Under the pieces are notes generated by a model. The model was given only the letters and a program-made list of their open reading frames with translations, was not told where the DNA came from and did not search any database. A stretch of 42,047 nucleotides of DNA. It comes from Candidatus Sungbacteria bacterium RIFCSPHIGHO2_01_FULL_50_25 (GTDB lineage: Bacteria; Patescibacteriota; Minisyncoccia; Sungbacterales; HO2-52-23). Where the stretch lies: positions 1 through 42,047 of the forward strand of contig MHQD01000026.1 of the NCBI GenBank assembly GCA_001822215.1, written 5' to 3'. This document shows, one piece after another, positions 22,365-41,900 of the stretch; position 1 is the stretch's first letter; each line of letters begins with the position of its first letter. Position numbers and translations under genes: made by a program.

Positions 22365-22373
22365 TGTGAATAA
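22365..22373. promoter_or_regulatory. consensus DnaA box in the AT-rich dnaA-dnaN spacer
   Basis: TGTGAATAA is the reverse complement of TTATTCACA and matches TTATNCACA at 9/9 positions. The surrounding 154-nt spacer is very AT-rich. Confidence 0.45.
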
Positions 22374-22397
22374 AATGGTGATATAAAAAAATAAAAT

Positions 22398-23777
22398 TTA
22401 TTCACTAAAAATTTTTTCCCGTATCAACCTAATTTCTTCTTCCAACTCGATGTTTTTCTTCAGCTCCTCCCCAATTTTTTCACAAGAATGAATCGCGGTC
22501 GTATGGTCCCGGCCCCCGAACCTGTCTCCGATAGACGGGTACGAAAATTTAAGTTCGTTGCGCAAAAGGAACATGGCGATCTGGCGCGGCTTCACAAAAT
22601 CTTTTTTTCGGGAACTCGTCATCAAATCTCGCTCCTTAATATCATAAAAATCAGATACCGATTTTATTATTTTTTTTGCGGAAACGAATTTTTTAGGAGT
22701 GAGAGCGTGAGTAACAAGGAGTTTTTCAACCTGTTCTTTGGTGACGGGGGTGTTTGATATTTTCGCGCTCATAACCACCTTATTCAAAACCCCCTCAAGC
22801 TCGCGGATATTCGTTTTTATTCGCTCCGCGATGAGGCGGAGCGCGTCTTCGGGGACCAAAACCTTTTTTTCGTCGGCTTTTGTCTTGAGGATGAGAAAAC
22901 GCGTTTCCACGTCCGGAACCCCGATATCCGCGATCATTCCCCCTTCAAAACGAGATTTTAAGCGTTCTTCCAGTGTCGCGATTGCCTGTGGCGGGCGATC
23001 GGAAGAAATGATAATCTGCTTGTTTTTTTCATAGAGCGCATTAAACGTGTGAAAAAACTCCTCCTGCATTTTCTCAGTCCGAGCAATAAATTGAATATCA
23101 TCCATGATTAATAAATCTACCGCCCGGTATTTTTCTTTCAACCGGTTCATCTCCTGGTTTTTCAGCGCATCAACAACCTCCCCCATGTATTTTTCTGACG
23201 AAAGGTATTTAACCTTTTTCTGGGGAAATTGTTTCAGTATTTCGTTTCCGACCGCCTGAATAAGATGCGTTTTCCCGAGTCCGACCCCGCCGTAGATAAA
23301 AAACGGATTATACCCGATTCCGGGGTTTTTAATTATCGATTGCGCCGCCGCATACGCCAGCTCGTTGAAAGAACCGACAATAAAATTCGTAAACGAGTAG
23401 CGCGGGTTTAAATTTGTCTCCGGGTCAACAGAAAGTTCCCGAATCGATGCGTCGTCCGACTGGGAAGGAGCGGCGGCGGATGAACGCCGTTTTTTCGCCT
23501 GGTCTTTTTGTATGGACGACAGGCCGCGCTCCGGGCGCGCAATAACATACGAAACATCTTTTATTTCAGGCGTGATTTCCCGCAGCGCGTGGAGTATGGA
23601 CTTGTGGTATTTGTTTTGGAGCCATTCCTTTACAAATCCATTCGGAACATATACAGTCGCAAGGCCCGCGTCCACCCCCATAATACCGGTTTCTTGAAAC
23701 CACGTTATGAAATTCGGCCGCGAGATCGCTGGTTCAAGTTTCGCAAGTGTCGCTTGCCAAAGTTCGTTACGTTCCAT
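22398..23777 (-). CDS. dnaA: chromosomal replication initiator protein DnaA
   Basis: 459 aa. It has the AAA+ Walker A GGVGLGKTHL, Walker B DLLIMDDIQF and a C-terminal DNA-binding domain (FGGRDHTTAIHSCEKI). Confidence 0.97.
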   Translation of the reverse strand: MERNELWQATLAKLEPAISRPNFITWFQETGIMGVDAGLATVYVPNGFVKEWLQNKYHKSILHALREITPEIKDVSYVIARPERGLSSIQKDQAKKRRSSAAAPSQSDDASIRELSVDPETNLNPRYSFTNFIVGSFNELAYAAAQSIIKNPGIGYNPFFIYGGVGLGKTHLIQAVGNEILKQFPQKKVKYLSSEKYMGEVVDALKNQEMNRLKEKYRAVDLLIMDDIQFIARTEKMQEEFFHTFNALYEKNKQIIISSDRPPQAIATLEERLKSRFEGGMIADIGVPDVETRFLILKTKADEKKVLVPEDALRLIAERIKTNIRELEGVLNKVVMSAKISNTPVTKEQVEKLLVTHALTPKKFVSAKKIIKSVSDFYDIKERDLMTSSRKKDFVKPRQIAMFLLRNELKFSYPSIGDRFGGRDHTTAIHSCEKIGEELKKNIELEEEIRLIREKIFSE

Positions 23778-23952
23778 GGACGAGAGGTAAAAAGTTTGTA
23801 ATGGAAAAAATGAAGCCCCACGAGATACCGCGTATTATACCGAAGTGCGAGCAAAAGACTCTAGTGCACATATGTGGAAATGCTGTTGAAGATATGTTAA
23901 TTATTATGTAGACTAAAACAACCGGTCGAAAATCCTAAAAGACAAAAAAGAC

Positions 23953-24087
23953 ATGTCTGTTACGTATCAACCATCAAAAAGGAAACGGAAGAAAACTCAC
24001 GGATTCCGCGCCCGGATGAAGTCGAGTCGGGGGAGGCGAGTCCTTTCGAGACGAAGAAAGAAGGGGCGCGCGCGCATGGCGGTATAA
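23953..24087 (+). CDS. rpmH: 50S ribosomal protein L34
   Basis: Hand translation, 44 aa: [44 protein letters not shown]. It is too short for the ORF track. It occupies the classical position upstream of rnpA. Confidence 0.93.
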
Positions 24088-25922: not shown

Positions 25923-27140
25923 CTACTTCGCGACGTCGATCCCCCAAACCCCTCCGGTTATGCGGTCGACAAAAAAGATATATTTTTCGTCTTTGGTGAC
26001 GCGCAGGTTCGTCATATCATAGCCGCCGTCGTTGAATACGCCAGAGACGGCCTTTGTTTTTATGTTAAAAAGCGCAATGCGGTCGTTCGTGTTCAAGTCG
26101 CCCCGCAAATAGTCGTCCGGCATAAGCGCGTCTTGCGGAATTCCCCGAGGAACCGCACAGTACACCTTCTCTTCTCCTACCCACGTGCATTTTTCCGGCA
26201 GTGTCTGGAAATCCGGTTTTGCAATCTCTTTCCCGGTCGAGTCATGCACCGCGAGCGTCGCAGTCTTTCCCGACCTATCGGTCGATCCCACCAATACGCG
26301 CCCCCCGCCAGGCGACCACAGCGAAGAAAGGCCGTTTGAGGGACCCAAAAATCTTCTAAGTTCGCCGGTTGACCTCGCGAAGAGGAAAACGTATCCCGGT
26401 GCTGTTCCAGAGGGGTTTGTTTCAAGGGCGAACCGCTCGGACGCCGGCCAAGAAACGCGAACGCCGCGCACCGGCGTTCGAAAGATTATTTTTTGGTTTT
26501 TTCCGGACGCGTCAGCAGTCGATACAAGCGTTTCTCCGTCTTTTTCAGTTACGTAGACAAGAGACGATCCGGCGCTGGACCACGCAATGCTTTTTATCCC
26601 GGTCGGGAGAGTCGCGACGCTCGAGGTTCCGATGCTTTTAAAAAGGAACGATTTTACAATATCGCCGTCAAGGTACGAAACAGCCGCGCGGTCGCGAGTC
26701 GGAGACCACACCGCGTTAAAAAGCCCGATGACGGTAATCGTAGAAAGGGATTCGTGTGTTCCCGACGGGAACGAAAAAGCGCCGATTTCCCCGCCCTCCT
26801 TTTTGAAATAGTAGAGTTTGTCCTCGGCGCGCGAAAGCTCGATTGAAAGCGCTGGCGTCTCTGTGACAGGAAAAAGACGCGTCTGGATGCCGCTCGCAAT
26901 GGGAATTTCAACGCCAGAGCCCTCTTGGATCGGGCCCTCGCCGAATCCAGGAGATCGGCCGGCACCCGGCCCCGCTTCGGGAAATCCGGACACCGGTTCG
27001 CCGACTATCTCCGGCGGCTTTTCGCCGCCGCCCTCCCCGGTGCGGAAGATGAAAAGGTATGTGAGGAGCGTTCCGGTGCCGAAAAGAATGACCGCGATGC
27101 CGATGTAGACGATTAGTTTTTTTTGTGACAGTTCGTTCAT
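25923..27140 (-). CDS. membrane-anchored TolB-like beta-propeller protein (last gene of the operon)
   Basis: 405 aa. It has an N-terminal TM (LIVYIGIAVILFGTGTLLTYLFIF) and a Gly/Pro linker. Recurring blade-like motifs follow: AVWSPTRDRAAVSY, IAWSSAGSSLVYV, VSWPASERFALE, SLWSPGGGRVLVGS. Confidence 0.65.
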   Translation of the reverse strand: MNELSQKKLIVYIGIAVILFGTGTLLTYLFIFRTGEGGGEKPPEIVGEPVSGFPEAGPGAGRSPGFGEGPIQEGSGVEIPIASGIQTRLFPVTETPALSIELSRAEDKLYYFKKEGGEIGAFSFPSGTHESLSTITVIGLFNAVWSPTRDRAAVSYLDGDIVKSFLFKSIGTSSVATLPTGIKSIAWSSAGSSLVYVTEKDGETLVSTADASGKNQKIIFRTPVRGVRVSWPASERFALETNPSGTAPGYVFLFARSTGELRRFLGPSNGLSSLWSPGGGRVLVGSTDRSGKTATLAVHDSTGKEIAKPDFQTLPEKCTWVGEEKVYCAVPRGIPQDALMPDDYLRGDLNTNDRIALFNIKTKAVSGVFNDGGYDMTNLRVTKDEKYIFFVDRITGGVWGIDVAK

Positions 27141-27145
27141 GCGCG

Positions 27146-27628
27146 CTATTTTTTCTTCTCAATAAGCGGGAGGTTTATATCAAAATTTTTCACTAAATTC
27201 GGGTTAATGATAGAAAGAGTGAGGTATGATACAAGCGCCACCACGAGCCCAAGCACTGCGTTATACATCGCTTTTTTCGCTTCCGCGGTTCCCCCCTCGG
27301 TCGGCATCATGTAGCGTATCGCGCCGTAGGTAAACATAAAAAACGCGGTAAGCGCGACAAGACTTATGCCGTAGGTATAGATTTTCGAAAAAAGATCGCT
27401 CGGCTTTGCAACGTCGGTCAGAAATTCAAGTCCGGGAATGGCCTTGGACGCCGCCGCGACGCCAAGGTCAACGCACTGCCCCCCCGTCGCGCTTTTGCAG
27501 AGAATCTGGGCGTGAACAGCAAAGGGAGCCGCCACAACGATTCCGAAAACAAGCATAACCCCTGCTGCTCTGGCTCCCCGATTGAGGTTTCTCAATAATA
27601 AGGCGAAAAAAAGCGTTGGTGCGCGCAT
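27146..27628 (-). CDS. candidate VirB2/TrbC-type T4SS pilin
   Basis: 160 aa. A long signal sequence ends in AVHA. A Cys pair follows (CKSATGGQC), then two hydrophobic helices (IYTYGISLVALTAFFMFTYGAI, AVLGLVVALVSYLTLSII). This is the VirB2-like topology, and the gene is in a VirB3/B4/B6 neighbourhood. Confidence 0.5.
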   Translation of the reverse strand: MRAPTLFFALLLRNLNRGARAAGVMLVFGIVVAAPFAVHAQILCKSATGGQCVDLGVAAASKAIPGLEFLTDVAKPSDLFSKIYTYGISLVALTAFFMFTYGAIRYMMPTEGGTAEAKKAMYNAVLGLVVALVSYLTLSIINPNLVKNFDINLPLIEKKK

Positions 27629-27629
27629 G

Positions 27630-28667
27630 CTATTGTATGAATATGGTAAGCGATTTTATTACCGGAAGGAGAAAGGCGTTTTTCAATGAGGACGCGGTCG
27701 CGGACACCGAAAGCGAAACGGCTTGGATTCCTTCGGTCTTTAATGTAAGAAACTGCGGGTTTTGGGCGGCGGGTTCTATCGACGTTCCCCCGACCTTCCA
27801 GGCGTACGCGATATTTTTTCTTCCTCCGGGGAAAAAGAAGGGCTCCGCAACAAGGTCGATGAGCTCCCCTTTTGCTGCGTGGATGAGCGTGTGCGCGGAG
27901 CGGTATTCTGTTCCGCCGACAGGAGAATAGCGATAGACCGACACCAGCGGATTGCGGTTTATGATGAAAAGCGACCCCTCCTTTTTTACGGTTTTTCCGA
28001 GGTCTTCAATTGAGACGCGCACCCAGTGAGACCCGTTCGGGATTTTCGACGTCTGTATTCCGATAGACTGTTTCCCGATCCCCGACGCGAACTTTTTTTC
28101 ATCCCCCAGACTCCATTGGTAGACGAGATTTTTCGGGTCAATCATTTTTCCGCCAGAAGCGATTTCTGGAAGCGCGGTGACATATACGGTTGATCCAGGA
28201 ACCGCGAGCGCTTTTCCGGTAAACCACGCGGGTACGTGCGTATCCGCGTGCCAGACGAGCGAAAGATCGGATACGCGGATCGTTGCAGACATTGTGGCGA
28301 CTTGTTTGTCCAAGGCGGTTGCGCGTACCGATACGCTTATCGCGCTTCCGATCCCTCCCGCGGTTATTTCCGCGGAGTACTTTCCCCTGCCTGAAAGGTC
28401 GGAACGAAATTGCCCGTTTATGGTCCACTCAAAGAATGTCGTATCTTTGTTGAATATCGGGGTTACTGCTTGAAGAATCACTTTTTCTCCCGGGGCAGGC
28501 GAAGACGGGACCGCGGTGATTGACGCCGGCGGCTCGAGTTGCGGAAAAGAAATCTGCGCGCCCGCGAAAAAAGGAAGAGCGAACAAAAACGACCCGATTG
28601 CGGCAGTTTGTACGAGATGCCCCATACCGCCTATTATATACCGCTTTTTCTCTCTTGTGGACGTCAT
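27630..28667 (-). CDS. hypothetical secreted beta-rich protein
   Basis: 345 aa with a signal peptide (AAIGSFLFALPFFAGAQ). ATGA overlap with the upstream VirB4 gene indicates translational coupling. No family recognised. Confidence 0.65.
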   Translation of the reverse strand: MTSTREKKRYIIGGMGHLVQTAAIGSFLFALPFFAGAQISFPQLEPPASITAVPSSPAPGEKVILQAVTPIFNKDTTFFEWTINGQFRSDLSGRGKYSAEITAGGIGSAISVSVRATALDKQVATMSATIRVSDLSLVWHADTHVPAWFTGKALAVPGSTVYVTALPEIASGGKMIDPKNLVYQWSLGDEKKFASGIGKQSIGIQTSKIPNGSHWVRVSIEDLGKTVKKEGSLFIINRNPLVSVYRYSPVGGTEYRSAHTLIHAAKGELIDLVAEPFFFPGGRKNIAYAWKVGGTSIEPAAQNPQFLTLKTEGIQAVSLSVSATASSLKNAFLLPVIKSLTIFIQ

Positions 28668-30484
28668 GATATTGATTGCGAATGATACTCCTCGCGCGCT
28701 TTTTTAATCATGAGAATTTGGGCAGGGTCAGACGTTATGACCTGGTCTTCCGAATAGGACGCGAGCACCTTCATCGCGACGTGCTTTAGGCCGGCAAAGA
28801 AAATGCCTTCGCCGCGGTCCGCTTCCAAAAGAATAAGCTTTTCTTCTTCCGTGAGATTGAACGTGTCTTTCACGAATTCGATTGTCGCGGGGGACTGTTT
28901 GAATAGAATCTGGAGGGACGAGTTCGTGATGATCGGCTTCCCGTACGTCGAGTTCATGAAGTCGCCGACGTCCTGGGTGATCGTCGCAAGGCCGAGATAG
29001 TATTTGCGCGCGCGCTTCGCGATGCCGAAAAGAAACGAGCCGCCGTCCTCGTTTTTCAAAAGCCACCACGCTTCATCCACAAGCAAAATCCGCTTTTTCA
29101 GGGTGGTCCTCACGACGTTCCAGATGTAGTGAAGCACGATATACATGCCGACCGAGCGAAGCTCGTCCTCCATGTCGCGGACGGAAAACACCACGAGGCG
29201 GTTTTTGATTTCCACGTTCGTCGGCTGGTTCAAAAACCCCGACCACGTGCCGGAGGTGTATTTTTTGAGCCGCACCGCGATTTCCTCGCCGCCAACCGTG
29301 TTTGCAAGAATAAGCTCGAGGTCCGACAGTGTCGGCGGCGAAATCTGCGAAAAATCGGATTCGGGAGTGATGTCCTTTGATGCGTATGTTTCCGTGATCG
29401 CCTGGTCAAGAATCGCGTCTTCTTCCGGCGTAAGCCCCCCGAGCATGATGCGGAAAAGCCCGATCAGGTTTACGATGTTTGACCTCAAAACGTCTGCGGC
29501 CGATTCGTCTTCGCGCGGGACCGGAAGGTCAAAGGGATTTATATGGTTTTTCGAAGAAAGCGAGATATTGATGTAGGACCCGCCGACGACTTCCGCCAAA
29601 TATTCGTATTCGCGCTCCGGGTCGATCACGATGACGTCAACCCCCCACATGAGCGAGCGCAGAATTTCAAGTTTCGAAAAATAGCTTTTTCCTCCGCCGG
29701 AGACGCCGAACACCACGGAGTTCGCGTTGGGAAGGGAAAACCGGTCAAAGAGGATCAAACTGTTATTGTGGCTGTTGATTCCGTAAAGAATCCCCTTGTT
29801 TGAAGTGAGGTCAAAGGAAACAAACGGGAACGTGGAGGACACGGGAGACGAGTTTAAATAGGTATGCACCCCCAAGCGGTCCATGGCGAGCGGCAGGACC
29901 GATTGGAACCCCTCGAGCTGCTGGAAAAGAGCGGTTTTCGTGTATACAAGGCGCGATTCAAGGACCGATTTTATGTCTGCCTCCGCTTTATTGAGCTCCT
30001 CTTCGGATTTTCCGTAGACCGTAATATAGAGACCGAATGAAAATAGGCGCTCCTGTGCCTGTTGGAGCTTGTCGCGAAGCTCTTCGAGGTTCCGGTACGC
30101 CGCATCAAGCATCGGATCGCGCACAAGCCCCCGCGTTTCCCGGTCGGATATTTGCGACTGGACCTCCGCGGTTTTCCGGCGAAGGGTCCGCATAATGGTT
30201 GCGGTGTCCACGGGGTGGATGTGCATCGCGATATCGAAGAGTTTGTCCATGTTGACGACCGGGCTGAACCATCCAGTGTGAAGATAGCGCGGATAGGAAA
30301 AGACGAACATGGTGCGCGCGAATTTTTCCCCGATCCGTATGAACGTCGGGCTTACCTCAAGGGCCGAGGGCGCGAGGATGTCTTGGAGCCCGATTCCTTC
30401 CCCGCGCGACATATCCGACGGGAGGATCGAGCGCATCATCTCGTCTTCTTTCTCTTTTTCGTCTTTTTTTCCGAAAAATGCCAT
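28664..30484 (-). CDS. VirB4/TrbE/Tn916-Orf16-type conjugative ATPase, middle and C-terminal ATPase part
   Basis: It has Walker A VVFGVSGGGKSYF and Walker B RILLVDEAWWLL. The middle domain reads IRIGEKFARTMFVFSYPRYLHTGWFSPV. The track starts at TTG 30523; the first ATG is at 30484. Confidence 0.9.
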   Translation of the reverse strand: MAFFGKKDEKEKEDEMMRSILPSDMSRGEGIGLQDILAPSALEVSPTFIRIGEKFARTMFVFSYPRYLHTGWFSPVVNMDKLFDIAMHIHPVDTATIMRTLRRKTAEVQSQISDRETRGLVRDPMLDAAYRNLEELRDKLQQAQERLFSFGLYITVYGKSEEELNKAEADIKSVLESRLVYTKTALFQQLEGFQSVLPLAMDRLGVHTYLNSSPVSSTFPFVSFDLTSNKGILYGINSHNNSLILFDRFSLPNANSVVFGVSGGGKSYFSKLEILRSLMWGVDVIVIDPEREYEYLAEVVGGSYINISLSSKNHINPFDLPVPREDESAADVLRSNIVNLIGLFRIMLGGLTPEEDAILDQAITETYASKDITPESDFSQISPPTLSDLELILANTVGGEEIAVRLKKYTSGTWSGFLNQPTNVEIKNRLVVFSVRDMEDELRSVGMYIVLHYIWNVVRTTLKKRILLVDEAWWLLKNEDGGSFLFGIAKRARKYYLGLATITQDVGDFMNSTYGKPIITNSSLQILFKQSPATIEFVKDTFNLTEEEKLILLEADRGEGIFFAGLKHVAMKVLASYSEDQVITSDPAQILMIKKAREEYHSQSIS

Positions 30485-30491
30485 AGGGGTT

Positions 30492-31148
30492 TTATTCGCT
30501 TGCGGCGGCGACCGTTTTTTCAAATTCAGTCGGGTTATAGAGTCCGTAGAAAAGTTCGACCAATTCCTCGGTGTTTAGGGGCGCCGACCGGACGCCGAAC
30601 GACTTGAGCCCTTCGATGATCGTATCAACGCGCTGCCAAATCTGGAGCTTGTGCTCTTCAAAGAGCGCATGCACGTCTTTCTCCGAGTTTGCGTCCTTCC
30701 CGCTTCCGAGCCCGAGCGTGTTGATGGCTGACGAAAGAAACCCTTTTTGTTCGAGGACCGACACGCTGTAGGGAATGATGATGTAAAACGTTTTTGACAT
30801 GATGTTCGCCGAGCCGACGAGCGTTTGGATGAATTCGGTGTATTCCCCGATCTGGATTTTTACGTATTCATTGTCTTCCTCTTTTTGCTTGCTCTTCAGC
30901 GTCTCCAGATACGGGGCGATGTTCAAAAGGCGCGAGAGCGTGACGATCTGGATCGGAAAATCGAGCGAATTGAGAAAGTTTTGGTATTGGTATGTGATGG
31001 CGTCCTGCTCTTCCGCCGATTTGAGCGCGAAGTTGATGGATGAACACATGACGAGAACCCGAAAACTTCCGTCCTTCAGGACGACGACATCCTCTTTGAT
31101 GGAATCGATCGAGAGCAGTTGTTGGGCCGAAGCCGCTTGTACCGCCAT
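30492..31148 (-). CDS. VirB4 N-terminal-domain-like protein (separate ORF)
   Basis: 218 aa. LLSIDSIKEDVVVLKDGSFRVLVMCSSINFALKSAEEQDAITYQYQNFLNSLDFPIQIV has the pattern of the N-terminus of Gram-positive VirB4 homologues (Tn916 Orf16/PrgJ type). This judgement is from memory of those families. Confidence 0.6.
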   Translation of the reverse strand: MAVQAASAQQLLSIDSIKEDVVVLKDGSFRVLVMCSSINFALKSAEEQDAITYQYQNFLNSLDFPIQIVTLSRLLNIAPYLETLKSKQKEEDNEYVKIQIGEYTEFIQTLVGSANIMSKTFYIIIPYSVSVLEQKGFLSSAINTLGLGSGKDANSEKDVHALFEEHKLQIWQRVDTIIEGLKSFGVRSAPLNTEELVELFYGLYNPTEFEKTVAAASE

Positions 31149-31150
31149 GG

Positions 31151-31612
31151 CTATGTGTGAAGAGGGGTCCGCCGCTCCTCGTGCGTTTTAGTATCAAGCG
31201 TCCACGAAAGCTCCGACAGGCGCGAGTGGGAAAGTTTCGGCGAGGTCTGGATACGCGTTTCTTCTTCCTTGTGCTCCCCCGCGCTTTTCTGGACCTCGCG
31301 CGTTTGGGCGCGCTTCCAGACAAACACCCGCGGCCGGATAAAATATTTCACCGCGTGAACCACGATTGAGCCGACCGGTATTTCGCTGATTTTTCCCCAC
31401 GCGAGCGCGACCGCGGAGGCGCCAACGAAGAAAGAAAGGACGAGCGCGAGAAACCCGGTGAACTGGAAAAAAATAACAACAATAAGGATGACCCCCGACG
31501 CAAGGTACGCAAATTGTTTCGCGGTCAAAAATCCCCCGATAATTTTATCTTCGACGGTGATGAATTGTGGGACTTGAAATCGTTGCACGGCGAGTGAATA
31601 GGTCACGATCAA
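31151..31612 (-). CDS. PrgI/VirB3-like small membrane protein
   Basis: 153 aa. The motif VPQFITVEDKIIGGFLTAKQFAYL is followed by two TM helices and then YFIRPRVFVWKR, resembling the PrgI/Tn916-Orf17 family. It lies immediately upstream of the VirB4 genes. Confidence 0.6.
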   Translation of the reverse strand: MIVTYSLAVQRFQVPQFITVEDKIIGGFLTAKQFAYLASGVILIVVIFFQFTGFLALVLSFFVGASAVALAWGKISEIPVGSIVVHAVKYFIRPRVFVWKRAQTREVQKSAGEHKEEETRIQTSPKLSHSRLSELSWTLDTKTHEERRTPLHT

Positions 31613-31636
31613 TTAGTATGTTCTAATGTATAAGAT

Positions 31637-32731
31637 TTACTCGAAATTTTCTCGGTACGGATCTTGTTTTTGTTCCGGTTGTGCTGCGGGGCGCGGCGTA
31701 TCTCCCCGGAGATCTATCGGCGGAATCTTCGGGTTTGTGTAAGGCAATTCCCCTTTTTTCACCAAGAACGGCTCCTGCGGCCCGCGCGGGTCCTCGACCC
31801 GGTCTGTTTTCTGCGGAGGTTCTTTTTCTCCTTCAAGCACTTTTTCGCGGTAAGGATCAGTTCCCTGCCGCGGCGGAGTCGGCATGCGCGGTATGAACAC
31901 TTTTGGCTGTTGAGGAATTGCACTCGGCCCTGCGGGAGCCGGCGCCGGACGCGGCGCTTGAGGCAAGACAATATTCCGAGTTTCCTCGCGAGGCGGCGCA
32001 GGCGGCTTTGGCATCTCTGGGGTAGTAGGAAGCGGTTTTGGCGCTGGCGGTGCGGGATGAAGCTCCTCGGGCATTTTCAAAGACCCCGAAAGTACGTTCA
32101 TGCGTGGCGAGGGCGGCGTTGTTGTCGGCTGCGGAGTTGGCGCTGGCCGCGGAGCCGCTACTACTTGTTTTTGTGGTATTACAAGCGGCGGCCGCATGGG
32201 CGCTTTTTGTTCCATCGGCGGTGCCTGTTTTTGCATGACCGGCGGGGCTTGCGGCCGCGGAACAGCTTGCGGTATTGGTTGGCCGAATGTGCGCACTGCG
32301 GGCTCTTGAGGCGCAGGCGCCGGAGGGCGCGGCGCAAGAACAATCTGCGCGCCTTGCGGCTTTTGCGCTTCCTCTATGCGTGCGCTCAGCGAGCTTTCGC
32401 TCAATTCAAACCTGTGCGCTTTCTTGATTTCCTCCGCAAGCGGTTTTAACACGCTAATATAAATGTCTTTTGCAAGAGCGTCTGCAATCGCCGGTTTTAA
32501 TCCGATGCGTTCGATAATGCGCGGCAAAAAGTCCTGCGGCCTCGAAAGGCCGAGGACTATATTTCCGGCTTCCGCGGAAGCAATTTTCCCGTTGTCTTGT
32601 GAGAGATTGTATTTTTTCCCGATCTCGTACATTTTAGTAGCAATTTCATCATCAAAAAGCGCGTCCTGGAGAATATCCGGAAGAGCGTCAAATTTTTTCT
32701 CCATTTCTTCTTGTGAAAAAAGCCGAACCAT
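31637..32731 (-). CDS. proline-rich protein with a small globular N-terminal domain
   Basis: 364 aa. About 120 aa are ordered at the N-terminus. About 220 aa of PxP/AP low complexity follow (APRPPAPAPQEP..PRPAPTPQPTTTPPSP..). Confidence 0.7.
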   Translation of the reverse strand: MVRLFSQEEMEKKFDALPDILQDALFDDEIATKMYEIGKKYNLSQDNGKIASAEAGNIVLGLSRPQDFLPRIIERIGLKPAIADALAKDIYISVLKPLAEEIKKAHRFELSESSLSARIEEAQKPQGAQIVLAPRPPAPAPQEPAVRTFGQPIPQAVPRPQAPPVMQKQAPPMEQKAPMRPPLVIPQKQVVAAPRPAPTPQPTTTPPSPRMNVLSGSLKMPEELHPAPPAPKPLPTTPEMPKPPAPPREETRNIVLPQAPRPAPAPAGPSAIPQQPKVFIPRMPTPPRQGTDPYREKVLEGEKEPPQKTDRVEDPRGPQEPFLVKKGELPYTNPKIPPIDLRGDTPRPAAQPEQKQDPYRENFE

Positions 32732-32741
32732 GATAATCGCG

Positions 32742-34862
32742 TTAGGTTATGAAATCTTCCGGGTTAACCCGCGCTTCTGCGGCTCGTTCCCGTTCTCGCC
32801 TTTCTTCCTGTTCCCGACGTCGTTCATTCGCCCGTCCCCTTCGTTCGTTTCTTTGCATTTCGTTTGCGAGATGCAGTTCATATTCATCAAAGGCCCGTAA
32901 TGCCGCGGCGCCCTCGTGCCGCAACCCGCTTGTGCGGTCCATCACAGCGGCGATATTCACGAGCTGTTGTTGACGAGTTTTCATCACGTCCTTGATGCGT
33001 TGGTACACCGCAGGCGCTTCCTCTGCGATTTTCTTGACCTCTTTTCTTCCTTTGATGTTCGTGATGATTCCCAAAATCACTTCGTCGTCATCATACGCTT
33101 CAGGAGCAAGCCCGAGTTTATCAGCATCCTTCAATACTTTCCGTTTTTCCTTGACGCGTTCATCGACGTTGTCTTTTTCAATAAGATGCGGGTTTGTCTT
33201 GTACATATCTTTTGCAACACCGAACCGTTCCGCGTGCTTCACCGCCTCCTTGCGCTCATTCTCGTCAAGGTGCTGATCCATTTCTTTTCGCTTTGCAAGC
33301 ACCGCAGCCATTGCTGCTTTTTCCCGCGACGACACCGCGCCTTTGTACCTTTTCGCCACATCCTCGCTTGAGTAGTGGTCAACCTCTTTCATTCTTGTTT
33401 CTATATCTTCTTTGCGCTCTTTTCCAAGCCCCATGACGCCTGCTTCCATTTTTCTGCCGATACCCGGGATCCGGCGCAGTCCCTGCGCGAATTTCTGCGT
33501 TTGTTCAGGCGCGCGAGCCATCGCCGCTGCCCCGCCCTTGAGCGCAAGCGCGCCCACACCGCCCGCAGCAAGAAGACCCGCTTTTGCAACGAGCCCGACC
33601 CCCGCCCCTGCGATCGCGCCACCGGTTTGGCGCGCGAGTTTGAGTGCGATCCACATGAAAAGCAACCCCACAAACGGTACGAGCATTCTGTCAAACGATC
33701 CCGACGGGCCGCCGCCATGGGGAGCCGCTAAGTCGACTTTTGAAATAATGAAAAAGCCCAAGTACATCATGAGATAGAAAAGCGGCACAAAAAACGCCCA
33801 GCGAAGCATGGTGGAGAGCCACAGATCAAAATATTTCTGCATCTTTGGGACGATTGCCGCAAGAAATGCAAGCGGCGCAAGGACTGAAAGCGCGATCATA
33901 ACGCCGTATCGGATGATGAGCGTAATCGCGCCTAAAAACATGGTGACCGCAGTAAACAGAATAAAGATGGTTTGCGTAAACATGCGTACCGACGCGCTTA
34001 CAAGCCTGTCGAAAAGATTTGAGAACCATCCGGTTATCCAATTCAATACTCCAGTAAAGACCGCTCCTCCGATGCAAAAGGCCGCTCCCGTAGCAAGCGA
34101 GAGTCCGCCGGTAAGAGGAATAAGCGCGGTTCCGATAAGAAGCCCCCCGGCGCAACCGACACCAGCAGCTGCTTGAGCTTGTACGGGCTCAACGCCAAGT
34201 GACGCCAAAAGTGTATCCTTTATTGGATTGGTGTTTTGGCTTATTATTGCTCCTGTGTTAATTTCTCGCTGCAAATCATAGGCGCTCATGTCGCTGATCT
34301 GGGTTTTTGTGGGCACGCTTCCGACGTTTTGCAGATCAATGGCATCAACAATAAATCTTCCTGGGTCATCGGGCATATTTTTTGCAAATATTGCGCCAAG
34401 CTGATTTGCGACGCCGAACACTATCGTGACCATGAGAAGACTGAAGTTAATGAGGAGCGCGACCATGATAACGCGGAACAAAAGCCGTTTCCCGCCCCAC
34501 TGGTCGAGATTCAATATGATGGTAAACGCAATCCACAGGATAATAAGGAGAAACGCTCCGTTCGTAAGGTCGCGAAGCGCGGCCCATGCAATCGGGACAA
34601 CCGGAATACCGGAGGGCACCGTCACCACATTTATGTAGAAAAACGTATTAAGAAGCGCTGCCGCTGCCATGGCAATGTAGACGGAAATTTCCCGGACGAT
34701 ATATAAGATGACATATACAAGTCCCGCCGCGGGTGTGGAAAGTCCTTTTGCGAAGTCTGTTACTACGTCGCCAGCCGCGGCATACGCGGAAGACGCAAAT
34801 GCCGTTCCGGCAAGCGTCGAGAGAAGGGCATAAAAAGTCCGTTTTAGAGAAAAGTTTTTCAT
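32742..34862 (-). CDS. VirB6/TrbL-like polytopic membrane protein with a charged C-terminal extension
   Basis: 706 aa. It has a signal-like N-terminus, at least 8 hydrophobic helices across residues ~50-450, and then a ~230-aa K/E/R-rich cytoplasmic tail. Its size, topology and position next to VirB3/VirB4 fit VirB6/TrbL. No diagnostic motif was checked. Confidence 0.55.
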   Translation of the reverse strand: MKNFSLKRTFYALLSTLAGTAFASSAYAAAGDVVTDFAKGLSTPAAGLVYVILYIVREISVYIAMAAAALLNTFFYINVVTVPSGIPVVPIAWAALRDLTNGAFLLIILWIAFTIILNLDQWGGKRLLFRVIMVALLINFSLLMVTIVFGVANQLGAIFAKNMPDDPGRFIVDAIDLQNVGSVPTKTQISDMSAYDLQREINTGAIISQNTNPIKDTLLASLGVEPVQAQAAAGVGCAGGLLIGTALIPLTGGLSLATGAAFCIGGAVFTGVLNWITGWFSNLFDRLVSASVRMFTQTIFILFTAVTMFLGAITLIIRYGVMIALSVLAPLAFLAAIVPKMQKYFDLWLSTMLRWAFFVPLFYLMMYLGFFIISKVDLAAPHGGGPSGSFDRMLVPFVGLLFMWIALKLARQTGGAIAGAGVGLVAKAGLLAAGGVGALALKGGAAAMARAPEQTQKFAQGLRRIPGIGRKMEAGVMGLGKERKEDIETRMKEVDHYSSEDVAKRYKGAVSSREKAAMAAVLAKRKEMDQHLDENERKEAVKHAERFGVAKDMYKTNPHLIEKDNVDERVKEKRKVLKDADKLGLAPEAYDDDEVILGIITNIKGRKEVKKIAEEAPAVYQRIKDVMKTRQQQLVNIAAVMDRTSGLRHEGAAALRAFDEYELHLANEMQRNERRGRANERRREQEERRERERAAEARVNPEDFIT

Positions 34863-36898
34863 TACGGGGTGAACGCGGCTATTGCATTTGCAATTAGTTT
34901 ATCTACTTCAAAGAGTTTCTGTGTCGCGAGCCGGTTTGTGTCTGTCGCGGAAATAGACGCGGTTCGAATGGGTTCTGTCTCCGTTGCCGAGGATAGCGTT
35001 GCGCGTATGGAAGAAAGCGTTGCGAGAACGCCGACAAGCTCGATTTCTTTTGCGTTTACCACCGGGACCTGTGCGGTGAGCGAAGGTACCGAACCGAGCG
35101 ACAGTACCCCAGCTTCGAACGAGTTTGAATGCGTAATCGCTCTTCCCCCCATCGCATTTGTGCTGTCGATTTGGTTTATAGTCGAAATTTTTATATCCGC
35201 AGTACCGGTAATACCCGCGGTTACCGCGATCCCGGCGATCTCAAAGAAAATATTAAGGTCGTCCGCAAGGTTGAGTACATAGGTTGCGATCAGTCCCACG
35301 TCTTCGATACTCGTTGTTGAGAGAAGTTTTGATCGAAGAAAGAGAAGGCCAGCGCGCGTGCTTGCGATATTTTCTTTATCCGAAACCGCAGCAGCGAGTT
35401 TTGCTTTTGCCGCGGAAAGCCGGACAAGCGCGGAATCAATCAGGGCATTCGTACTTCCAAGCTCCGCGGTGAGTGTTGCAATGATACCCGGATCTGTTGC
35501 CGCCGCGATGCGCGCGGTGAGATCAGCGACTTTTGCGCGAAGCGTAAAAATAGCCCTCACCTCCGCGTAAATAGCCGTCAGCGCTTCGGAAAAGCGGGTA
35601 TCGATAATTTCAATTCCTTTATCGGCGCGCGCGATCTGTGTGTTTAGCTGAACCATGAGCGTTGATTCGGAGAATATGCCCGGGGAAGAAGTTACTGCCG
35701 CGGAAAGCGAGGGCGCAAATACGCCTGCGCCGTCAGGGCCGGAACTGGTTGTGACAAGCGTATCAATCAAAAACATAATTGCTGCAGTAAGCGCTTCTTG
35801 CACTTCATCCGCGTTGATAACCCAGTCAATCCCGGACCCGAATATGCGGTTTACAAGGTCTGCGATAGTTTCTCCTGATGTTCTTGTCTCTGTTTCCGTT
35901 GTGCATATTTCATTTCCCGTTGTTTCATCCATTTGGCAGTTCTCTTTCTTTTCAACCCCGTATCCGCGGTTTCCGCGGTTCGCCTCAATTTTTACCACTT
36001 CAGCTCCGACTTTGCTTTGTGCCTGCACCGAGCGCTCTTCGAGCGCAAGTATCGTCGCTCCTTCCACGTTGCACGCAGAATAAGTCATTTTTTTCGTGAG
36101 CGTTTCCCATCCGCCGTTTCTGAAGTCTTGATTGAAACTGCCGTCGTTTAGCGCCGGCACCTTGCAGGTAAAAACTTCAAAAAGCTTATTTTGCCCGGGC
36201 TGCGCTTGAATTAATATATCGTTTACATACGGATTTATGTTATTCCCCATTTGCGTTTTTGCGATGTTTTCAGCGAATTCACTCGAGTGCTTGTTCTCTA
36301 TTTTTCTGAATTCCGCCTCATAGTTTTGTATAAATCCAACGTCGGATTCTTGAATCCAAGAAATAATCCGACTGCCAAGGGTTTTTAGTAATACCGCGGT
36401 GATTCCTTTCCAAATCGGGTCAAGAATGCATTCTTTTTTTACAATTTCGCCGGTGTTTGTCCGGATTCTTTGGGTTTCGTTTCTGACAATACTGTCTTTT
36501 ACAGGCACCTCGCTTCCTGCAATGCCGCCAATTATTCCGCCAAGCGCGCCCCCCACAACGCCGCCGACAAGTCCGCCAAGTCCGCCACCCCCGACTCCAC
36601 CGAGAAACCCGCCAAAAATATCACCAACTTTACCAAGAGCATCTCCAAAAAGAGAGCCGAGGATTCCGCCTGCTCCGAATCCGCCGCACGATGCGCCACC
36701 AGAAGAAAGAAGACCGCCAATTCCGCCCGCAAGGCTCCCAAGACCGAATCCGCCTCCGTCGCCTCCCCCGCCCCCCCCGATCGGGCCGAGATCGTCTTCG
36801 GCAAAAACACCCGCTGGCACAAGAAGGTTCGAAAGGATAAGCACAAAAACAAGCACCCCTCCGATTATTCTTTTTATTTCAAGCGGTTGCATGCGCAT
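34862..36898 (-). CDS. large secreted or anchored protein with an N-terminal glycine-zipper region
   Basis: 678 aa. A TM/signal (IIGGVLVFVLILSNLLVPAGVFA) is followed by ~95 aa of GGxGG repeats and a ~550-aa Ala/Thr/Ser-rich region. Its stop overlaps the next start (TAATG at 34860-34864). Confidence 0.7.
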   Translation of the reverse strand: MRMQPLEIKRIIGGVLVFVLILSNLLVPAGVFAEDDLGPIGGGGGGDGGGFGLGSLAGGIGGLLSSGGASCGGFGAGGILGSLFGDALGKVGDIFGGFLGGVGGGGLGGLVGGVVGGALGGIIGGIAGSEVPVKDSIVRNETQRIRTNTGEIVKKECILDPIWKGITAVLLKTLGSRIISWIQESDVGFIQNYEAEFRKIENKHSSEFAENIAKTQMGNNINPYVNDILIQAQPGQNKLFEVFTCKVPALNDGSFNQDFRNGGWETLTKKMTYSACNVEGATILALEERSVQAQSKVGAEVVKIEANRGNRGYGVEKKENCQMDETTGNEICTTETETRTSGETIADLVNRIFGSGIDWVINADEVQEALTAAIMFLIDTLVTTSSGPDGAGVFAPSLSAAVTSSPGIFSESTLMVQLNTQIARADKGIEIIDTRFSEALTAIYAEVRAIFTLRAKVADLTARIAAATDPGIIATLTAELGSTNALIDSALVRLSAAKAKLAAAVSDKENIASTRAGLLFLRSKLLSTTSIEDVGLIATYVLNLADDLNIFFEIAGIAVTAGITGTADIKISTINQIDSTNAMGGRAITHSNSFEAGVLSLGSVPSLTAQVPVVNAKEIELVGVLATLSSIRATLSSATETEPIRTASISATDTNRLATQKLFEVDKLIANAIAAFTP

Positions 36899-36902
36899 AT
36901 GG

Positions 36903-37898
36903 TCAATATACGATTTTGTACGCGTTGTCGGCTGGCGTGAGCGTAATGTTTTCTTTGCGAAGCCAATTCCAAAGGTCGTAGCGGTTGAGATTCAAAAGCT
37001 CTTCTTTTACTTGGATGTTTGGCTCGACAAGCGCAAGGGTTTTCAGGGGGTCTTGTTCGGTCGCCTCGAATGCCGCAATATGGCGCGCCATCTCGCGCAT
37101 GAGAAAAATCTGTTTTCCGTGGTACCACGCAAGGGTCTTCGGAACCGGAAGCGCTTCGAGTTCACGGGCAATTGCGTCAGCCGCCTCGCGATAGCGCGCG
37201 AATTCGGGAAGCAGTTCGAATTGTCCCGATCGGAGTATTTCCACGAGAAGGTCAAGATTGTCTTTGGGGAGCCCCTGTGAGTGGGTTGCGATAATGCGCG
37301 CGGTTTCGTTAAGGTATGCGCGCACCGCCTCCGGACTCATATCGTCGGATGTGACAATCGGCATTCGTTCAAGCGGCACCGTGGGAATGGGCCTCGGGAT
37401 CGCGCCCTCCGCCGACAGGCGCTCGATTTCTTTTGTCAAAAGACCTGACGCAAGAAATGTGTTTTTGCTTCCTTTGGAGAGCGCAAGCGCCCCCCCCTCG
37501 TCCATGAATTTTACAAAAAGTTCTTCGGTGAGATTTTTTGCGCTTCCGTCGGTTGAGGCGCCGAGCACAGAACCATTTCCTGATTCGGCGGCAAGCGAAC
37601 CCCGGAGCACTTCGTCGCGGTCAAATATGCCGTCTCCGTCGGAATCCTCGTTGTTCGGATTAAGGCCGTATATTTTTTCCTCCCAATTTTTTAGGCCGTC
37701 TTCGTCTTGATCAAGAAAAAGCGGATTCGGTTTAATTTCACGCGAAGCGACATTTTTTATTGCCGCAGAAATGTTTCCGCCGGAATGCGTTGCGGCGTAT
37801 AAAAGATATATTCCGAGAAGCGCGGGTAAAAGTATAAAAAGAAGAGGACCGGCTGATCCCAGTTTCTCCAATCGAAAATCGCGTGCGTAGTATGCCAC
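36903..37898 (-). CDS. membrane-anchored protein with thrombospondin-type-3-like Ca-binding repeats (first gene of the operon)
   Basis: 331 aa with a GTG start at 37898 and a TM helix (GPLLFILLPALLGIYLLY). DQDEDGLKNWEEKIYGLNPNNEDSDGDGIFDRDE matches the DxDxDG TSP3-like repeat pattern. Confidence 0.7.
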   Translation of the reverse strand: MAYYARDFRLEKLGSAGPLLFILLPALLGIYLLYAATHSGGNISAAIKNVASREIKPNPLFLDQDEDGLKNWEEKIYGLNPNNEDSDGDGIFDRDEVLRGSLAAESGNGSVLGASTDGSAKNLTEELFVKFMDEGGALALSKGSKNTFLASGLLTKEIERLSAEGAIPRPIPTVPLERMPIVTSDDMSPEAVRAYLNETARIIATHSQGLPKDNLDLLVEILRSGQFELLPEFARYREAADAIARELEALPVPKTLAWYHGKQIFLMREMARHIAAFEATEQDPLKTLALVEPNIQVKEELLNLNRYDLWNWLRKENITLTPADNAYKIVY

Positions 37899-37904: not shown

Positions 37905-37913
37905 AGTATATCA
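37905..37913 (-). promoter_or_regulatory. extended -10 (TGaTATACT) 6 nt upstream of the operon's GTG start
   Basis: The minus strand reads TGATATACTGAATACGTG. There is no SD. This implies a leaderless or near-leaderless transcript. Confidence 0.35.
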
Positions 37914-38009
37914 TAGGGAAACGCTAGAAACCGCGCACTTATGCACAATTTCGAAATTTTTTCTCTTCCGCGCTCTTTTCAAAAAATCGGATATCTATAT
38001 ACTTACCGC

Positions 38010-38387
38010 ATGAGCCAAAAACAGCGTATCTATCTTTCTGTCGTATCCCTTTTTGTTGTCGCAAGCGCATTTTTCATCCCCGTTCTTGATACAAGTGCGT
38101 TTTTCGGCGGAGGCGGGTCAGGCGCGCTTACGCCGTTCGGCGGTATGGTGATGGCCTATGTGGTATGCACGTGCAGTTCAAGTATTTTGATAACCATTGG
38201 TCCGCCAACCATGGGGAGTTTTCTTGTTACCCCGGGGACAAAACTATACGCAAACTACAATTTTATGCCGGGCCATTGGGTTTTGGGACTTGCCCTACCC
38301 GCGTCTCTGCCCTGCTTGGTGTATGCCGGAACCAGCTGCGTGAATGTCGGCAACGGAAAGCCGATTGTCATGATGGGAACGAGTTAA
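38010..38387 (+). CDS. small secreted Cys-containing hypothetical protein (125 aa)
   Basis: The internal ATG at 38010 of ORF 37941..38387 gives the signal peptide MSQKQRIYLSVVSLFVVASAFFIPVLDTSA. TATACT (37998-38003) lies 6 nt upstream of that ATG. Confidence 0.6.
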   Translation: MSQKQRIYLSVVSLFVVASAFFIPVLDTSAFFGGGGSGALTPFGGMVMAYVVCTCSSSILITIGPPTMGSFLVTPGTKLYANYNFMPGHWVLGLALPASLPCLVYAGTSCVNVGNGKPIVMMGTS

Positions 38388-40591: not shown

Positions 40592-40649
40592 GAATGAAAT
40601 GCAGCGGTTTTTCTTATTTTTTAAATCGTTTTTTGTCCGGACATCGAGT

Positions 40650-40976
40650 ATGACAATGACCATTGATGAATTTTTGAAAACGAGCGTTGTGGATCTTGTC
40701 GGGCTCGAAAGCGCGCCAGAGAGTGTGAAGCGTGAATTTTTAGTAAAGGCGTCCCAAATGACGCTCGAGCGCATCGTGGGGCGCATTGACGGAATTCTTC
40801 CGGAAGCGAAAAAAGAGGAGTTTTACCGCGTGTTCGGCGATGAGGGAAACGACGACGATATGCAGAAATTTATTAAGGAAAACGTTCCCAATTTTGAGGA
40901 AATCGTGGGCGAAGAAACCGCGCGCGTAAAGGTGGATCTCGTCAAAGCCGCGGAAGAACTTAAAGCCGCGGCGTAG
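40650..40976 (+). CDS. hypothetical small acidic cytoplasmic protein
   Basis: ORF 40599..40976. The N-terminal 17 codons look non-coding, so the start is probably ATG 40650 (MTMTIDEFLKTS..). No family recognised. Confidence 0.5.
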   Translation: MTMTIDEFLKTSVVDLVGLESAPESVKREFLVKASQMTLERIVGRIDGILPEAKKEEFYRVFGDEGNDDDMQKFIKENVPNFEEIVGEETARVKVDLVKAAEELKAAA

Positions 40977-41321: not shown

Positions 41322-41900
41322 ATGCCTTCCTCCTATCGTCTGGGAAAAGAAGAAATAGTTCGTGCAATCCTCATGTCGCTCGGGGTTGCGGGGCTTGTTG
41401 TTGCCGCTGCCGCCGCGCCGAACGCAACGCTTCTTTTGAAGCCGCTCATTCGGAAAATGAATAGGCGGCCGATAGCGGACGATTCCCTGGAGCGGTCGCT
41501 CAGACGGATGGCGAAAAAGCGGCTTGTCGAATTTTCGGTGCGGAATGGAAAAACATATCTCCACATTACAGAAAGCGGAAGGAAAAAACTCAAGGAAATC
41601 GAGTTTGAATCAATGAAGATCGATATATCCGGATCATGGAATGGGGTCTGGACGGTTATTCTTTTTGATATACCGGAATCACGGAAAACCGCACGGGATG
41701 CCCTTCGGAGAAAATTAAAAGACCTCGGATGTTATCAATACCACAAGAGCGTTTTTGTTCATCCGGTATCTTGCGGAGATGAAATTGATTTTGTGGCTGA
41801 ATTTTTCCAAGTCGGGCGGCATGTCATTCATTTTGAAACGCGCTCGCTCGGAAACCAAGAACATCGCGCCCGGCGCTTTTTCGGGATCCGCGGCGCGTGA
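41322..41900 (+). CDS. PaaX-like protein (winged-helix N-terminal region plus PaaX/Cas2-fold-like domain)
   Basis: 192 aa. LRRMAKKRLVEFSVRNGKTYLHITESGRKKL is wHTH-like. WNGVWTVILFDIPESRKTARDALRRKLKDLGCYQYHKSVFVHP matches the W-x-G-x-W...(F/Y)-x-(I/V)-PE...R...L...G...SV(W/F)(I/V)-x-P pattern of the PaaX family. Confidence 0.65.
   Translation: MPSSYRLGKEEIVRAILMSLGVAGLVVAAAAAPNATLLLKPLIRKMNRRPIADDSLERSLRRMAKKRLVEFSVRNGKTYLHITESGRKKLKEIEFESMKIDISGSWNGVWTVILFDIPESRKTARDALRRKLKDLGCYQYHKSVFVHPVSCGDEIDFVAEFFQVGRHVIHFETRSLGNQEHRARRFFGIRGA

Follow-up and report, generated by a model that had tools for sequence, protein, structure and literature searches.

Introduction

Type IV secretion systems (T4SSs) of Patescibacteria have already been published (Wang 2023; Quinonero-Coronel 2025) as relaxase-less machines which derive from the mating-pair formation class MPF-FATA and lie next to dnaA, dnaN and rnpA. 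We describe here a ten-gene operon of this kind from Candidatus Sungbacteria bacterium RIFCSPHIGHO2_01_FULL_50_25, located on the minus strand of a 42,047-nucleotide contig (GenBank MHQD01000026.1), the whole of which was analysed and is referred to below as the window. In a survey of 3,035 Patescibacteria genomes, VirB4 formed a distinct monophyletic clade nested in MPF-FATA and was neighboured by TrsD, PrgI, VirB6 and a VirB2-like protein (PF18895); relaxases occurred in only 103 of the genomes, homologues of the type IV coupling protein (T4CP) were often far from virB4, the systems lay near dnaA, dnaN and rnpA, notably in Paceibacteria, and a repurposing for host interaction was proposed (PMC12102498). 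A review of December 2025 restates these conclusions (PMC12857230).

In Saccharibacteria, the T4SS, pilins included, is essential for epibiotic growth (PMC10633639). In cultured Paceibacterales, T4SS pilins and proteins with immunoglobulin (Ig) folds are among the most highly expressed genes of unknown function (PMC10936435), and a cultured Microgenomatia strain which acquires host RNA forms tubular parasite-to-host connections that may be T4SS pili (10.64898/2026.06.21.733656).

The present locus is a typical member of the published Patescibacteria T4SS. We consider it most probably a vertically inherited chromosomal system in the layout of Paceibacteria, serving episymbiosis through host attachment and macromolecule exchange and not conjugation, because no relaxase or coupling protein lies nearby and the chromosomal position is fixed class-wide. 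The initial annotation, made from the nucleotide letters alone, had proposed a chromosomal surface, pilus or host-interaction machine as opposed to a conjugative element. The fixed position, the lack of DNA-processing genes and the literature all support this proposal, which is right but not new, having been published for Patescibacteria as a whole. The 2025 survey does not report a class-wide ten-gene block, and its main text neither mentions a propeller or TolB-like protein nor describes any of the five accessory proteins discussed below (PMC12102498). Our addition to the literature, useful but incremental, is the look of these five accessory members, together with a gene 2 family of more than 4,000 clusters that has no Pfam model.

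Organization of the operon

Open reading frame (ORF) calling in the window gave ten consecutive ORFs from 37898 to 25923 on the minus strand. They are listed here in order of transcription with the signals that bound them:

37905..37913, minus strand: extended -10 promoter element TGaTATACT, read from the sequence, 6 nt before the GTG of gene 1
36903..37898, minus strand: gene 1, membrane-anchored Ca-binding TSP3 protein (PF18884), 331 aa, GTG start
34862..36898, minus strand: gene 2, orphan Cys-containing helical and coiled-coil protein, 678 aa
32742..34862, minus strand: gene 3, VirB6/TrbL-like polytopic protein, 706 aa, supported via orthologues
31637..32731, minus strand: gene 4, Pro-rich protein without a hydrophobic segment, 364 aa
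31151..31612, minus strand: gene 5, PrgI/VirB3-like membrane protein (PF12666), 153 aa, TTG start
30492..31148, minus strand: gene 6, TrsD-like, separately encoded VirB4 N-terminal domain, 218 aa
28664..30484, minus strand: gene 7, VirB4 ATPase of CD1110 / MPF-FATA type, 606 aa from the ATG at 30484 (619 aa from the TTG at 30523)
27630..28667, minus strand: gene 8, predicted triple Ig-like protein (AlphaFold2 and Foldseek), 345 aa
27146..27628, minus strand: gene 9, VirB2-like T4SS pilin (PF18895), 160 aa
25923..27140, minus strand: gene 10, anchored TolB-like beta-propeller (orthologue profile), 405 aa
25879..25913, both strands: bidirectional intrinsic terminator, a 16-bp stem between an A run and a T run, shared by the convergent jag and gene 10

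The stop-to-start gaps from gene 1 to gene 10 are 4, -1, 10, 24, 2, 7, -4, 1 and 5 nt. The coordinates and the range of gaps (-4 to +24 nt) in the initial annotation were thereby borne out, as were the three junctions it singled out (TAATG at 34860-64, ATGA at 28664-67 and a 1-nt gap at 27629). The 7-nt gap before VirB4 presupposes the ATG at 30484 as its start; from the TTG at 30523, which is the mechanical ORF start, VirB4 would overlap gene 6 by 32 nt. We take the ATG to be the start because alignments with orthologues set in only at residue ~12-14 when the ORF is read from that TTG, a choice also favoured by relatives in which an in-frame stop is followed shortly by a Met.

The ten genes are probably expressed as a single transcript, to judge from spacing and flanking signals. 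As had been noted at the outset, a lone extended -10 lies upstream and a strong bidirectional terminator downstream. Promoter-like and terminator-like sites inside the operon are no commoner than in shuffled sequence. The hairpin begins 10 nt past the end of the operon and also serves the convergent jag. Its folding energy is -28.5 kcal/mol (z = -6.7) for the minus strand and -26.7 kcal/mol (z = -7.2) for the plus strand, and none of 200 shuffles was as stable. The promoter element was not listed by a generic sigma-70 scan, as it has no -35 match; it is conserved in the nearest relative (L001, 236-257), which reads TGaTATAAT-gaatac-GTG at the same place. That the extended -10 stands exactly 6 nt from the GTG in both sequences suggests that the gene 1 transcript is probably leaderless, its mRNA beginning with the GTG. 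No Shine-Dalgarno-like motif occurs within 30 nt upstream of any of the ten starts.

The type IV secretion core

Judged by homology, five of the genes make up the core of a monoderm machine: an MPF-FATA-type VirB4, a detached TrsD-like N-terminal domain, a PrgI/VirB3 adaptor, a VirB6 channel protein and a VirB2-type pilin. The ATPase (gene 7) matches the CD1110 VirB4 model NF045971 at E 2.2e-109 and 366.8 bits, for a curated cut-off of 325, and PF19044 (TraG P-loop) at E 4e-23; its translation contains the Walker A motif GVSGGGKS and the Walker B motif LLVDEAW. Over aligned segments it is 61-90% identical to the VirB4 of 80 Paceibacteria genomes and 30-37% identical to the VirB4 of Firmicute and Actinobacteria plasmids.

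Gene 6 matches positions 1-120 of the CD1110 VirB4 model (E 3.6e-6) and positions 103-233 of VirB4_plasma (E 2.8e-10), and it matches TrsD (NF041427) at E 8.3e-7, under the cut-off. It is a separate ORF in at least 75 relatives, with an in-frame stop in two of the loci (L018 and L052). As this holds in essentially every relative, the separation of genes 6 and 7 points to an ancestral split and not to a frameshift. The initial annotation had counted six products as non-standard for a T4SS, this one among them. The split VirB4 N-terminal domain is real and conserved, but it is TrsD, a known component; the other five keep their non-standard status.

For the remaining core members, gene 5 matches PF12666 (PrgI) at E 4.6e-10 and 40.3 bits (cut-off 27) and has a hydrophobic hairpin at residues 28-75. 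Gene 9 consists of a signal segment and two hydrophobic helices (hydrophobic segments 18-45, 86-104 and 120-146) and matches PF18895 (T4SS_pilin) at 26.9 bits for a cut-off of 26.6; 32 of 35 orthologues match the same family (best 1.4e-15), and five match TrbC/VirB2 (PF04956). At 160 aa it is short, most orthologues being longer (median ~247 aa) with a C-terminal extension that contains conserved cysteines. Gene 3 has ~8 hydrophobic segments and ends in a charged domain of ~260 aa. It gave no direct Pfam or NCBIfam match to VirB6; nine of its 53 orthologues match PF04610 (TrbL; best 3.5e-10), another match is to TrbL_4 (one orthologue), and across the membrane region the family profile has a weak match (E 0.05) to TrwI, which is VirB6 in R388. 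Sequence evidence obtained through orthologues thus supports gene 3 as an extended VirB6 channel protein. The profile searches therefore upheld all four core assignments made initially (VirB4, PrgI/VirB3, VirB6 and VirB2), with VirB4, PrgI and the pilin above their cut-offs and VirB6 identified by way of orthologues, a direct Pfam match being the one part that failed.

Comparison with described systems

With the Patescibacteria-clade T4SS the locus shares an MPF-FATA-related VirB4 adjoined by TrsD-like, PrgI, VirB6 and PF18895 pilin genes, the lack of a relaxase or T4CP nearby, and a chromosomal place near dnaA, dnaN and rnpA. The core order VirB6 ... PrgI - TrsD - VirB4 is likewise that of Southlakia epibionticum SEML1_0006-0019 (PMC10633639). 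The Southlakia locus differs in having lysozyme- or peptidase-type genes by virB4, two VirB6-like proteins, six pilins in a divergent array and an NTF2-like protein resembling VirB8. The present operon, with its single pilin, lacks both a hydrolase and an NTF2-like protein and carries the five accessory proteins instead.

Likeness to MPF-FATA systems is carried by VirB4, which exceeds the equivalog cut-off of the CD1110 family (CTn2), by the split of TrsD from VirB4, also present in pGO1 (trsC/trsD/trsE; as described in PMC12102498), and by traits held in common with systems of Firmicutes such as pCF10 (prgH/prgI/prgJ): a PrgI-type VirB3, a VirB6-type polytopic protein, a monoderm envelope and no VirB7, VirB9 or VirB10. 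Unlike those systems, the present operon is without a relaxase, a T4CP of PcfC/TrsK type, a VirB1-type hydrolase and a VirB8-like protein, and it is chromosomal, fixed in position and not mobile. Profile searches of the cluster, and structure models of genes 2 and 8, brought to light no VirB8-like member of the canonical monoderm minimal set (pCF10 / pIP501), and the profile searches no VirB1-type member. A further difference is the pilin, as MPF-FATA systems are usually said to be without VirB2 pilins.

A pilin-bearing system with a split VirB4 exists also outside Patescibacteria, because the megaplasmid of Pontibacillus sp. ALD_SL1 (NZ_CP062975.1, 351.8-361.4 kb) carries one. This plasmid holds the closest VirB4 in the plasmid collection (36.5% identity) and has two pilin genes and VirB6-like, PrgI, TrsD-like and VirB4 genes in the same order; it differs in an M23 peptidase after VirB4, in the absence of genes 1, 2, 4, 8 and 10, and in its Firmicute host. 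The plasmid measures 898 kb and is classed 'non-mobilizable'.

The systems of class MPF-T, Agrobacterium VirB/VirD4 and R388 Trw, have VirB2-type pilin, VirB3, VirB4 and VirB6 functions in common with the locus; the TrwI match of the gene 3 profile and the TrbC/VirB2 matches of five pilin orthologues are likenesses of this kind. The present locus differs from them in lacking VirB5, VirB7-VirB11 and VirD4, in its monoderm envelope and in its other class of VirB4.

Conservation across Paceibacteria

The best 80 VirB4 loci, from 80 species-representative genomes, all belong to Paceibacteria/Parcubacteria (Sung-, Giovannoni-, Niyogi-, Taga-, Terry-, Campbell- and Kaiserbacteria). The supposition that the genome is of Candidate Phyla Radiation (CPR) type agrees with this kinship and with the 100% identity of gene 8 to a protein of a Candidatus Sungbacteria RIFCSPHIGHO2_01_FULL metagenome-assembled genome.

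With tblastn, all ten genes were found to be co-linear in many relatives. Profile hidden Markov models (HMMs) built from orthologues were then run on all ORFs of the 80 loci, a locus being counted as eligible for genes 1-6 if its flank upstream of virB4 measured 8.5 kb or more, and for genes 8-10 if its downstream flank measured 4.5 kb or more. Genes 1 and 6 were present in 44/44 eligible loci, genes 3 and 5 in 43/44, genes 2 and 4 in 42/44, and genes 8, 9 and 10 each in 53/55, counts that are partly circular in that the HMMs were trained on the same loci. Independent of this circularity, the HMMs found members that tblastn had missed, position and strand were fixed, and gene order was kept although protein identity was only 20-30%. 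All HMM matches lay on the virB4 strand in the order 1 to 10, with one locus of altered order, and in ~42 loci jag/yidC and then dnaA-dnaN follow the operon. Loss of synteny in relatives had been named beforehand as an outcome that would weaken the initial interpretation; gene order proved to be very strongly kept.

These data bear on whether the accessory genes belong to the machine at all. Only the five recognisable T4SS genes might form it, genes 1, 2, 4, 8 and 10 being unrelated surface or housekeeping operon-mates; such an arrangement would agree with the absence of detectable homology between these five and any T4SS component, with their absence from the Pontibacillus locus, which shares the core, and with the different accessory genes (lysozyme- or peptidase-like, NTF2-like) of the Saccharibacteria locus. 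Order and strand are nevertheless maintained at the low identities given above, in 42-44 of the 44 loci eligible upstream and in 53 of the 55 eligible downstream. Two of the five are wedged into the core: gene 4 separates VirB6 from PrgI, and gene 8, which overlaps VirB4 by an ATGA, separates VirB4 from the pilin. Four of the five show the single-anchor extracellular topology expected of envelope parts. We regard a fortuitous association as improbable. On sequence comparison, the Paceibacteria machine is a fixed ten-gene unit in which a shared five-gene core is joined by a class-specific five.

The accessory proteins

Gene 1 begins with an N-terminal anchor (hydrophobic residues 12-39), followed by a TSP3 motif (DxDxDGLxDWEE...D.DGDG) and a helical domain of ~200 aa. 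It matches PF18884 (TSP3_bac) at E 4.3e-5; residues D63, D65, D67, W72, E74, D85 and D93 are invariant across 39 orthologues. In Bap, a biofilm protein, it is the Ca-binding region that the family profile matches (E 3.6e-6).

Besides a signal or anchor segment, gene 2 contains a Gly-rich tract specific to the lineage, a conserved helical domain of ~260 aa with Cys residues (~140-400) and a long coiled coil. The conserved domain is marked by the motifs WI, GGW, QNNPYGAY, TPG and ADE and by three to four conserved Cys. No sequence match was found in Pfam, NCBIfam or the PDB, nor on 72,556 plasmids. A single-sequence search of a set of 5.8 billion proteins returned nine relatives, the Gly-rich words probably dominating it, while an alignment of the trimmed domain succeeded; clustered at 50% identity, the family amounts to 6,355 clusters, of which 4,265 are matched at E<=1e-30, and every match that bears a source name is labelled hypothetical. 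The AlphaFold2 model is mostly helical (mean pLDDT, the predicted local confidence score, 71.7), with the coiled coil at pLDDT 85-97. A Foldseek comparison with the PDB gave nothing at E<=0.001, its best match (E 0.33) being a generic coiled coil; a VirB5-like or other known fold is thus unsupported, the fold search having returned generic coiled-coil matches only. Only the window and its nearest relative L001 have the Gly-rich tract, of 90 aa, which lies outside the conserved part. The glycine zipper, by which the initial annotation had characterized this 678-aa protein, was for this reason rejected as a hallmark. Orthologues span 214-1064 aa, the variation coming from the coiled-coil region (e.g. 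L019 862-4056), and the L019 orthologue contains tandem repeats of 'ISTLRQQL' type.

In gene 4, whose product is probably cytoplasmic, a Pro-rich linker of ~220 aa joins two conserved parts, an N-terminal domain of ~105 aa and a C-terminal DPYRE motif; it has no match in Pfam or the PDB. It had been described as a polyproline protein of ~220 aa, a figure that fits the linker only, the actual ORF being 364 aa. A relationship of its N-terminal domain to the DUF5663 protein encoded elsewhere in the window was rejected (hhalign probability 0.1%).

Gene 8, whose start overlaps the VirB4 stop (ATGA), is predicted to carry three tandem Ig-like beta-sandwich domains after an N-terminal anchor or signal segment. 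Its all-beta AlphaFold2 model has a mean pLDDT of 90.5 and a predicted template modelling (pTM) score of 0.80, and the best Foldseek matches are three-domain Ig proteins, e.g. Hoc (E 4e-9) and NCAM Ig1-3, followed by S-layer proteins and adhesins. The possibility that gene 8 is the missing VirB8 was rejected, as the confident model has three Ig-like domains and not an NTF2/VirB8 fold. Profiles for VirB8/NTF2 gave no match to genes 1, 4 or 10.

Gene 10 combines an N-terminal anchor (residues 7-33), a Gly/Pro-rich linker and a PD40-type propeller, in which C318 and C328 are invariant. A profile of its orthologues gave matches to TolB propellers with E-values between 1.6e-10 and 6.7e-10. Resemblance to the TolB of Tol-Pal is confined to this beta-propeller with blades of PD40 type, matched by the profile at ~1e-10 to TolB structures, whereas a membrane anchor replaces the TolA-binding domain. 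The score against the TolB equivalog TIGR02800 is 12.4 bits for a cut-off of 343, and gene 10 is not a TolB orthologue; moreover, the window contains no tol or pal genes, and the host organism has no outer membrane.

The pilin is accompanied by Ig-like, Ca-binding and propeller surface proteins, of kinds typical of adhesins, and no coupling protein is present. VirB4 might accordingly drive the assembly of a pilus for attachment alone, without translocation. Patescibacteria already adhere by type IV pili, however, and a PilB ATPase is encoded in the window at 12056-13723; the operon has also retained an extended VirB6 channel protein, and in Saccharibacteria the two systems are independently essential (PMC10633639). 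A purely adhesive pilus appears quite improbable to us on these grounds, relative to a system that would also translocate.

Chromosomal setting

The operon adjoins a jag-yidC-yidD-rnpA cluster. Jag ends 50 nt from the last stop of the operon and dnaA lies 2.1 kb off; the nearness to jag-yidC-rnpA reported initially is thus correct, though not the distance of ~2 kb. The principal landmarks in the window are as follows:

21143-22243: dnaN
22398-23777: dnaA
24096-24422: rnpA

Other genes of the window are ruvA, uvrB, holA, polA, tsaE, pilB, ruvB, yebC, ruvC, tyrS and a class A penicillin-binding protein. The window maps onto a 65,980-bp scaffold from the Rifle aquifer (ANAN16-1_1256), on which the 10 kb past each window end hold ksgA, uvrD, a LysM-M23 peptidase, comM, dksA, pnp and murein ligase genes.

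The possibility that the locus is a conjugative element or a remnant of one (an integrative and conjugative element, or an integrated plasmid) which moves DNA between cells can be judged against this setting. It draws on the membership of VirB4 in the CD1110 family of conjugal-transfer ATPases and on the nearest VirB4 relatives outside the CPR, which reside on Firmicute and Actinobacteria plasmids, mostly predicted to be conjugative. Across ~62 kb (the window, whose ORFs were scanned against Pfam, and the called genes of 10 kb on each side), no relaxase, VirD4/TcpA coupling protein, VirB11 or integrase was found with Pfam and NCBIfam. The reported absence of these genes from the window was thus confirmed and extended beyond both ends, where a relaxase, T4CP and integrase would have marked an ordinary integrative and conjugative element. 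No flanking tRNA was found either, tRNA and Rfam scans of the window having returned nothing. The flanks are housekeeping genes (dnaA, dnaN, rnpA, yidC, jag, ksgA and uvrD), the same chromosomal position recurs in dozens of species, and the GC content of the operon (0.50-0.55) is that of its surroundings, with no compositional anomaly. Together with the rarity of relaxases in Patescibacteria genomes at large (103/3,035; PMC12102498), this makes a conjugative element a very remote prospect, and we retain a vertically inherited chromosomal system.

A peptidoglycan hydrolase of VirB1 type is absent among the ten operon genes (Pfam/NCBIfam). Some 8 kb beyond gene 1, outside the window, there is a LysM and Peptidase_M23 protein of 433 aa (L082 13658-14959), which may act for the operon as a stand-in VirB1-type wall hydrolase.

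DnaA boxes are not enriched anywhere in the window (6 matches vs 4.5 expected), and oriC was not placed by sequence; the description of the locus as origin-proximal rests on gene content because this enrichment is not significant. GC content falls to 0.42 over 21000-24000 (dnaN-dnaA).

Several ORFs elsewhere in the window were also recorded. Divergent from the operon, at 37941-38387 on the plus strand, is a 148-aa ORF for a small Cys-containing protein with a likely signal peptide and no Pfam match; a homologue stands upstream of gene 1, on either strand, in 11 of the 80 loci. The plus-strand ORFs at 9675-10715 and 10880-11989 (346 and 369 aa) lack a Pfam match, fall in the highest-GC stretch (0.58) and, lying directly upstream of the T2SSE/PilB ATPase gene (12056-13723), may encode divergent type IV pilus parts. 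Upstream of the operon and without an evident link to it are the DUF5663 protein (40599-40976, plus strand) and a protein of 192 aa whose middle domain is Cas2-like, of PaaX type (41322-41900, plus strand).

A model for the machine

By analogy with characterised systems, VirB4 and TrsD, tethered at the membrane by PrgI and VirB6, would extract the pilin and polymerise it into a pilus of conjugative type, and the same VirB4 engine would energise a translocation channel. The four single-anchor proteins (genes 1, 2, 8 and 10) may form or decorate the section which reaches through the wall into contact with the host, offering Ca-binding, coiled-coil, Ig-like and propeller surfaces, while the Pro-rich gene 4 protein would work on the cytoplasmic side. 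For the outer part, this proposal builds on strict co-conservation, predicted topology and predicted folds.

The direction of transport deserves separate consideration. The machine might instead work inward, taking up host nucleic acids or other macromolecules through a pilus or channel in the manner of ComB or Ced, with no effector secretion. Patescibacteria are unable to synthesise nucleotides. Both host-RNA acquisition and tubular connections, possibly T4SS pili, have been reported (10.64898/2026.06.21.733656). The ~62 kb contain no coupling protein or relaxase for the export of a substrate, and among DNA importers the archaeal CedB is matched by VirB4, weakly and generically (E 1.9e-12). 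That match, however, is far under the cut-off and reflects the shared P-loop only, and no specific components of CedA-like or ComB-like kind were found. In Southlakia, moreover, loss of comEC ends competence and not viability while the T4SS is essential (PMC12857230), from which it follows that DNA uptake via ComEC is not the essential role. A dedicated uptake machine is in our view unlikely, if less so than the other alternatives considered above, and we continue to favour a system for host attachment and macromolecule exchange.

Several points weigh against this interpretation as it stands. Firstly, the assignment of gene 3 itself to VirB6 is transitive only, and gene 9 exceeds its Pfam threshold by just 0.3 bits. 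Secondly, the VirB8-, VirB1- and VirD4-like parts which canonical monoderm systems need are absent from the operon; the gene 8 model is Ig-like and that of gene 2 mostly helical with a short beta-hairpin, neither of them NTF2-like. Thirdly, all that is proposed here about one transcript, a pilus, a channel and the way in which the accessory proteins assemble was arrived at indirectly; the presence counts carry the circularity described above, and co-conservation within an operon is no proof of physical association.

With these points in mind, we suggest only tentatively, at somewhat less than an even chance, that the five class-specific proteins are structural subunits which build the wall-spanning, host-contacting outer assembly of a pilus-bearing monoderm T4SS. 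Were this so, the outer assembly would be without counterpart in any characterised T4SS and would stand in for the missing VirB8, VirB1, VirB5 and adhesin components.

Patescibacteria account for a very large, mostly uncultured share of bacterial diversity and live attached to other cells, and theirs is the first T4SS shown to be essential for the growth of its owner. The present locus adds no new kind of system to this picture; it shows the machine of Paceibacteria, the most represented class, to be a unit of ten genes in fixed arrangement, and it yields five conserved, unannotated proteins as candidates for the extracellular part of that machine.

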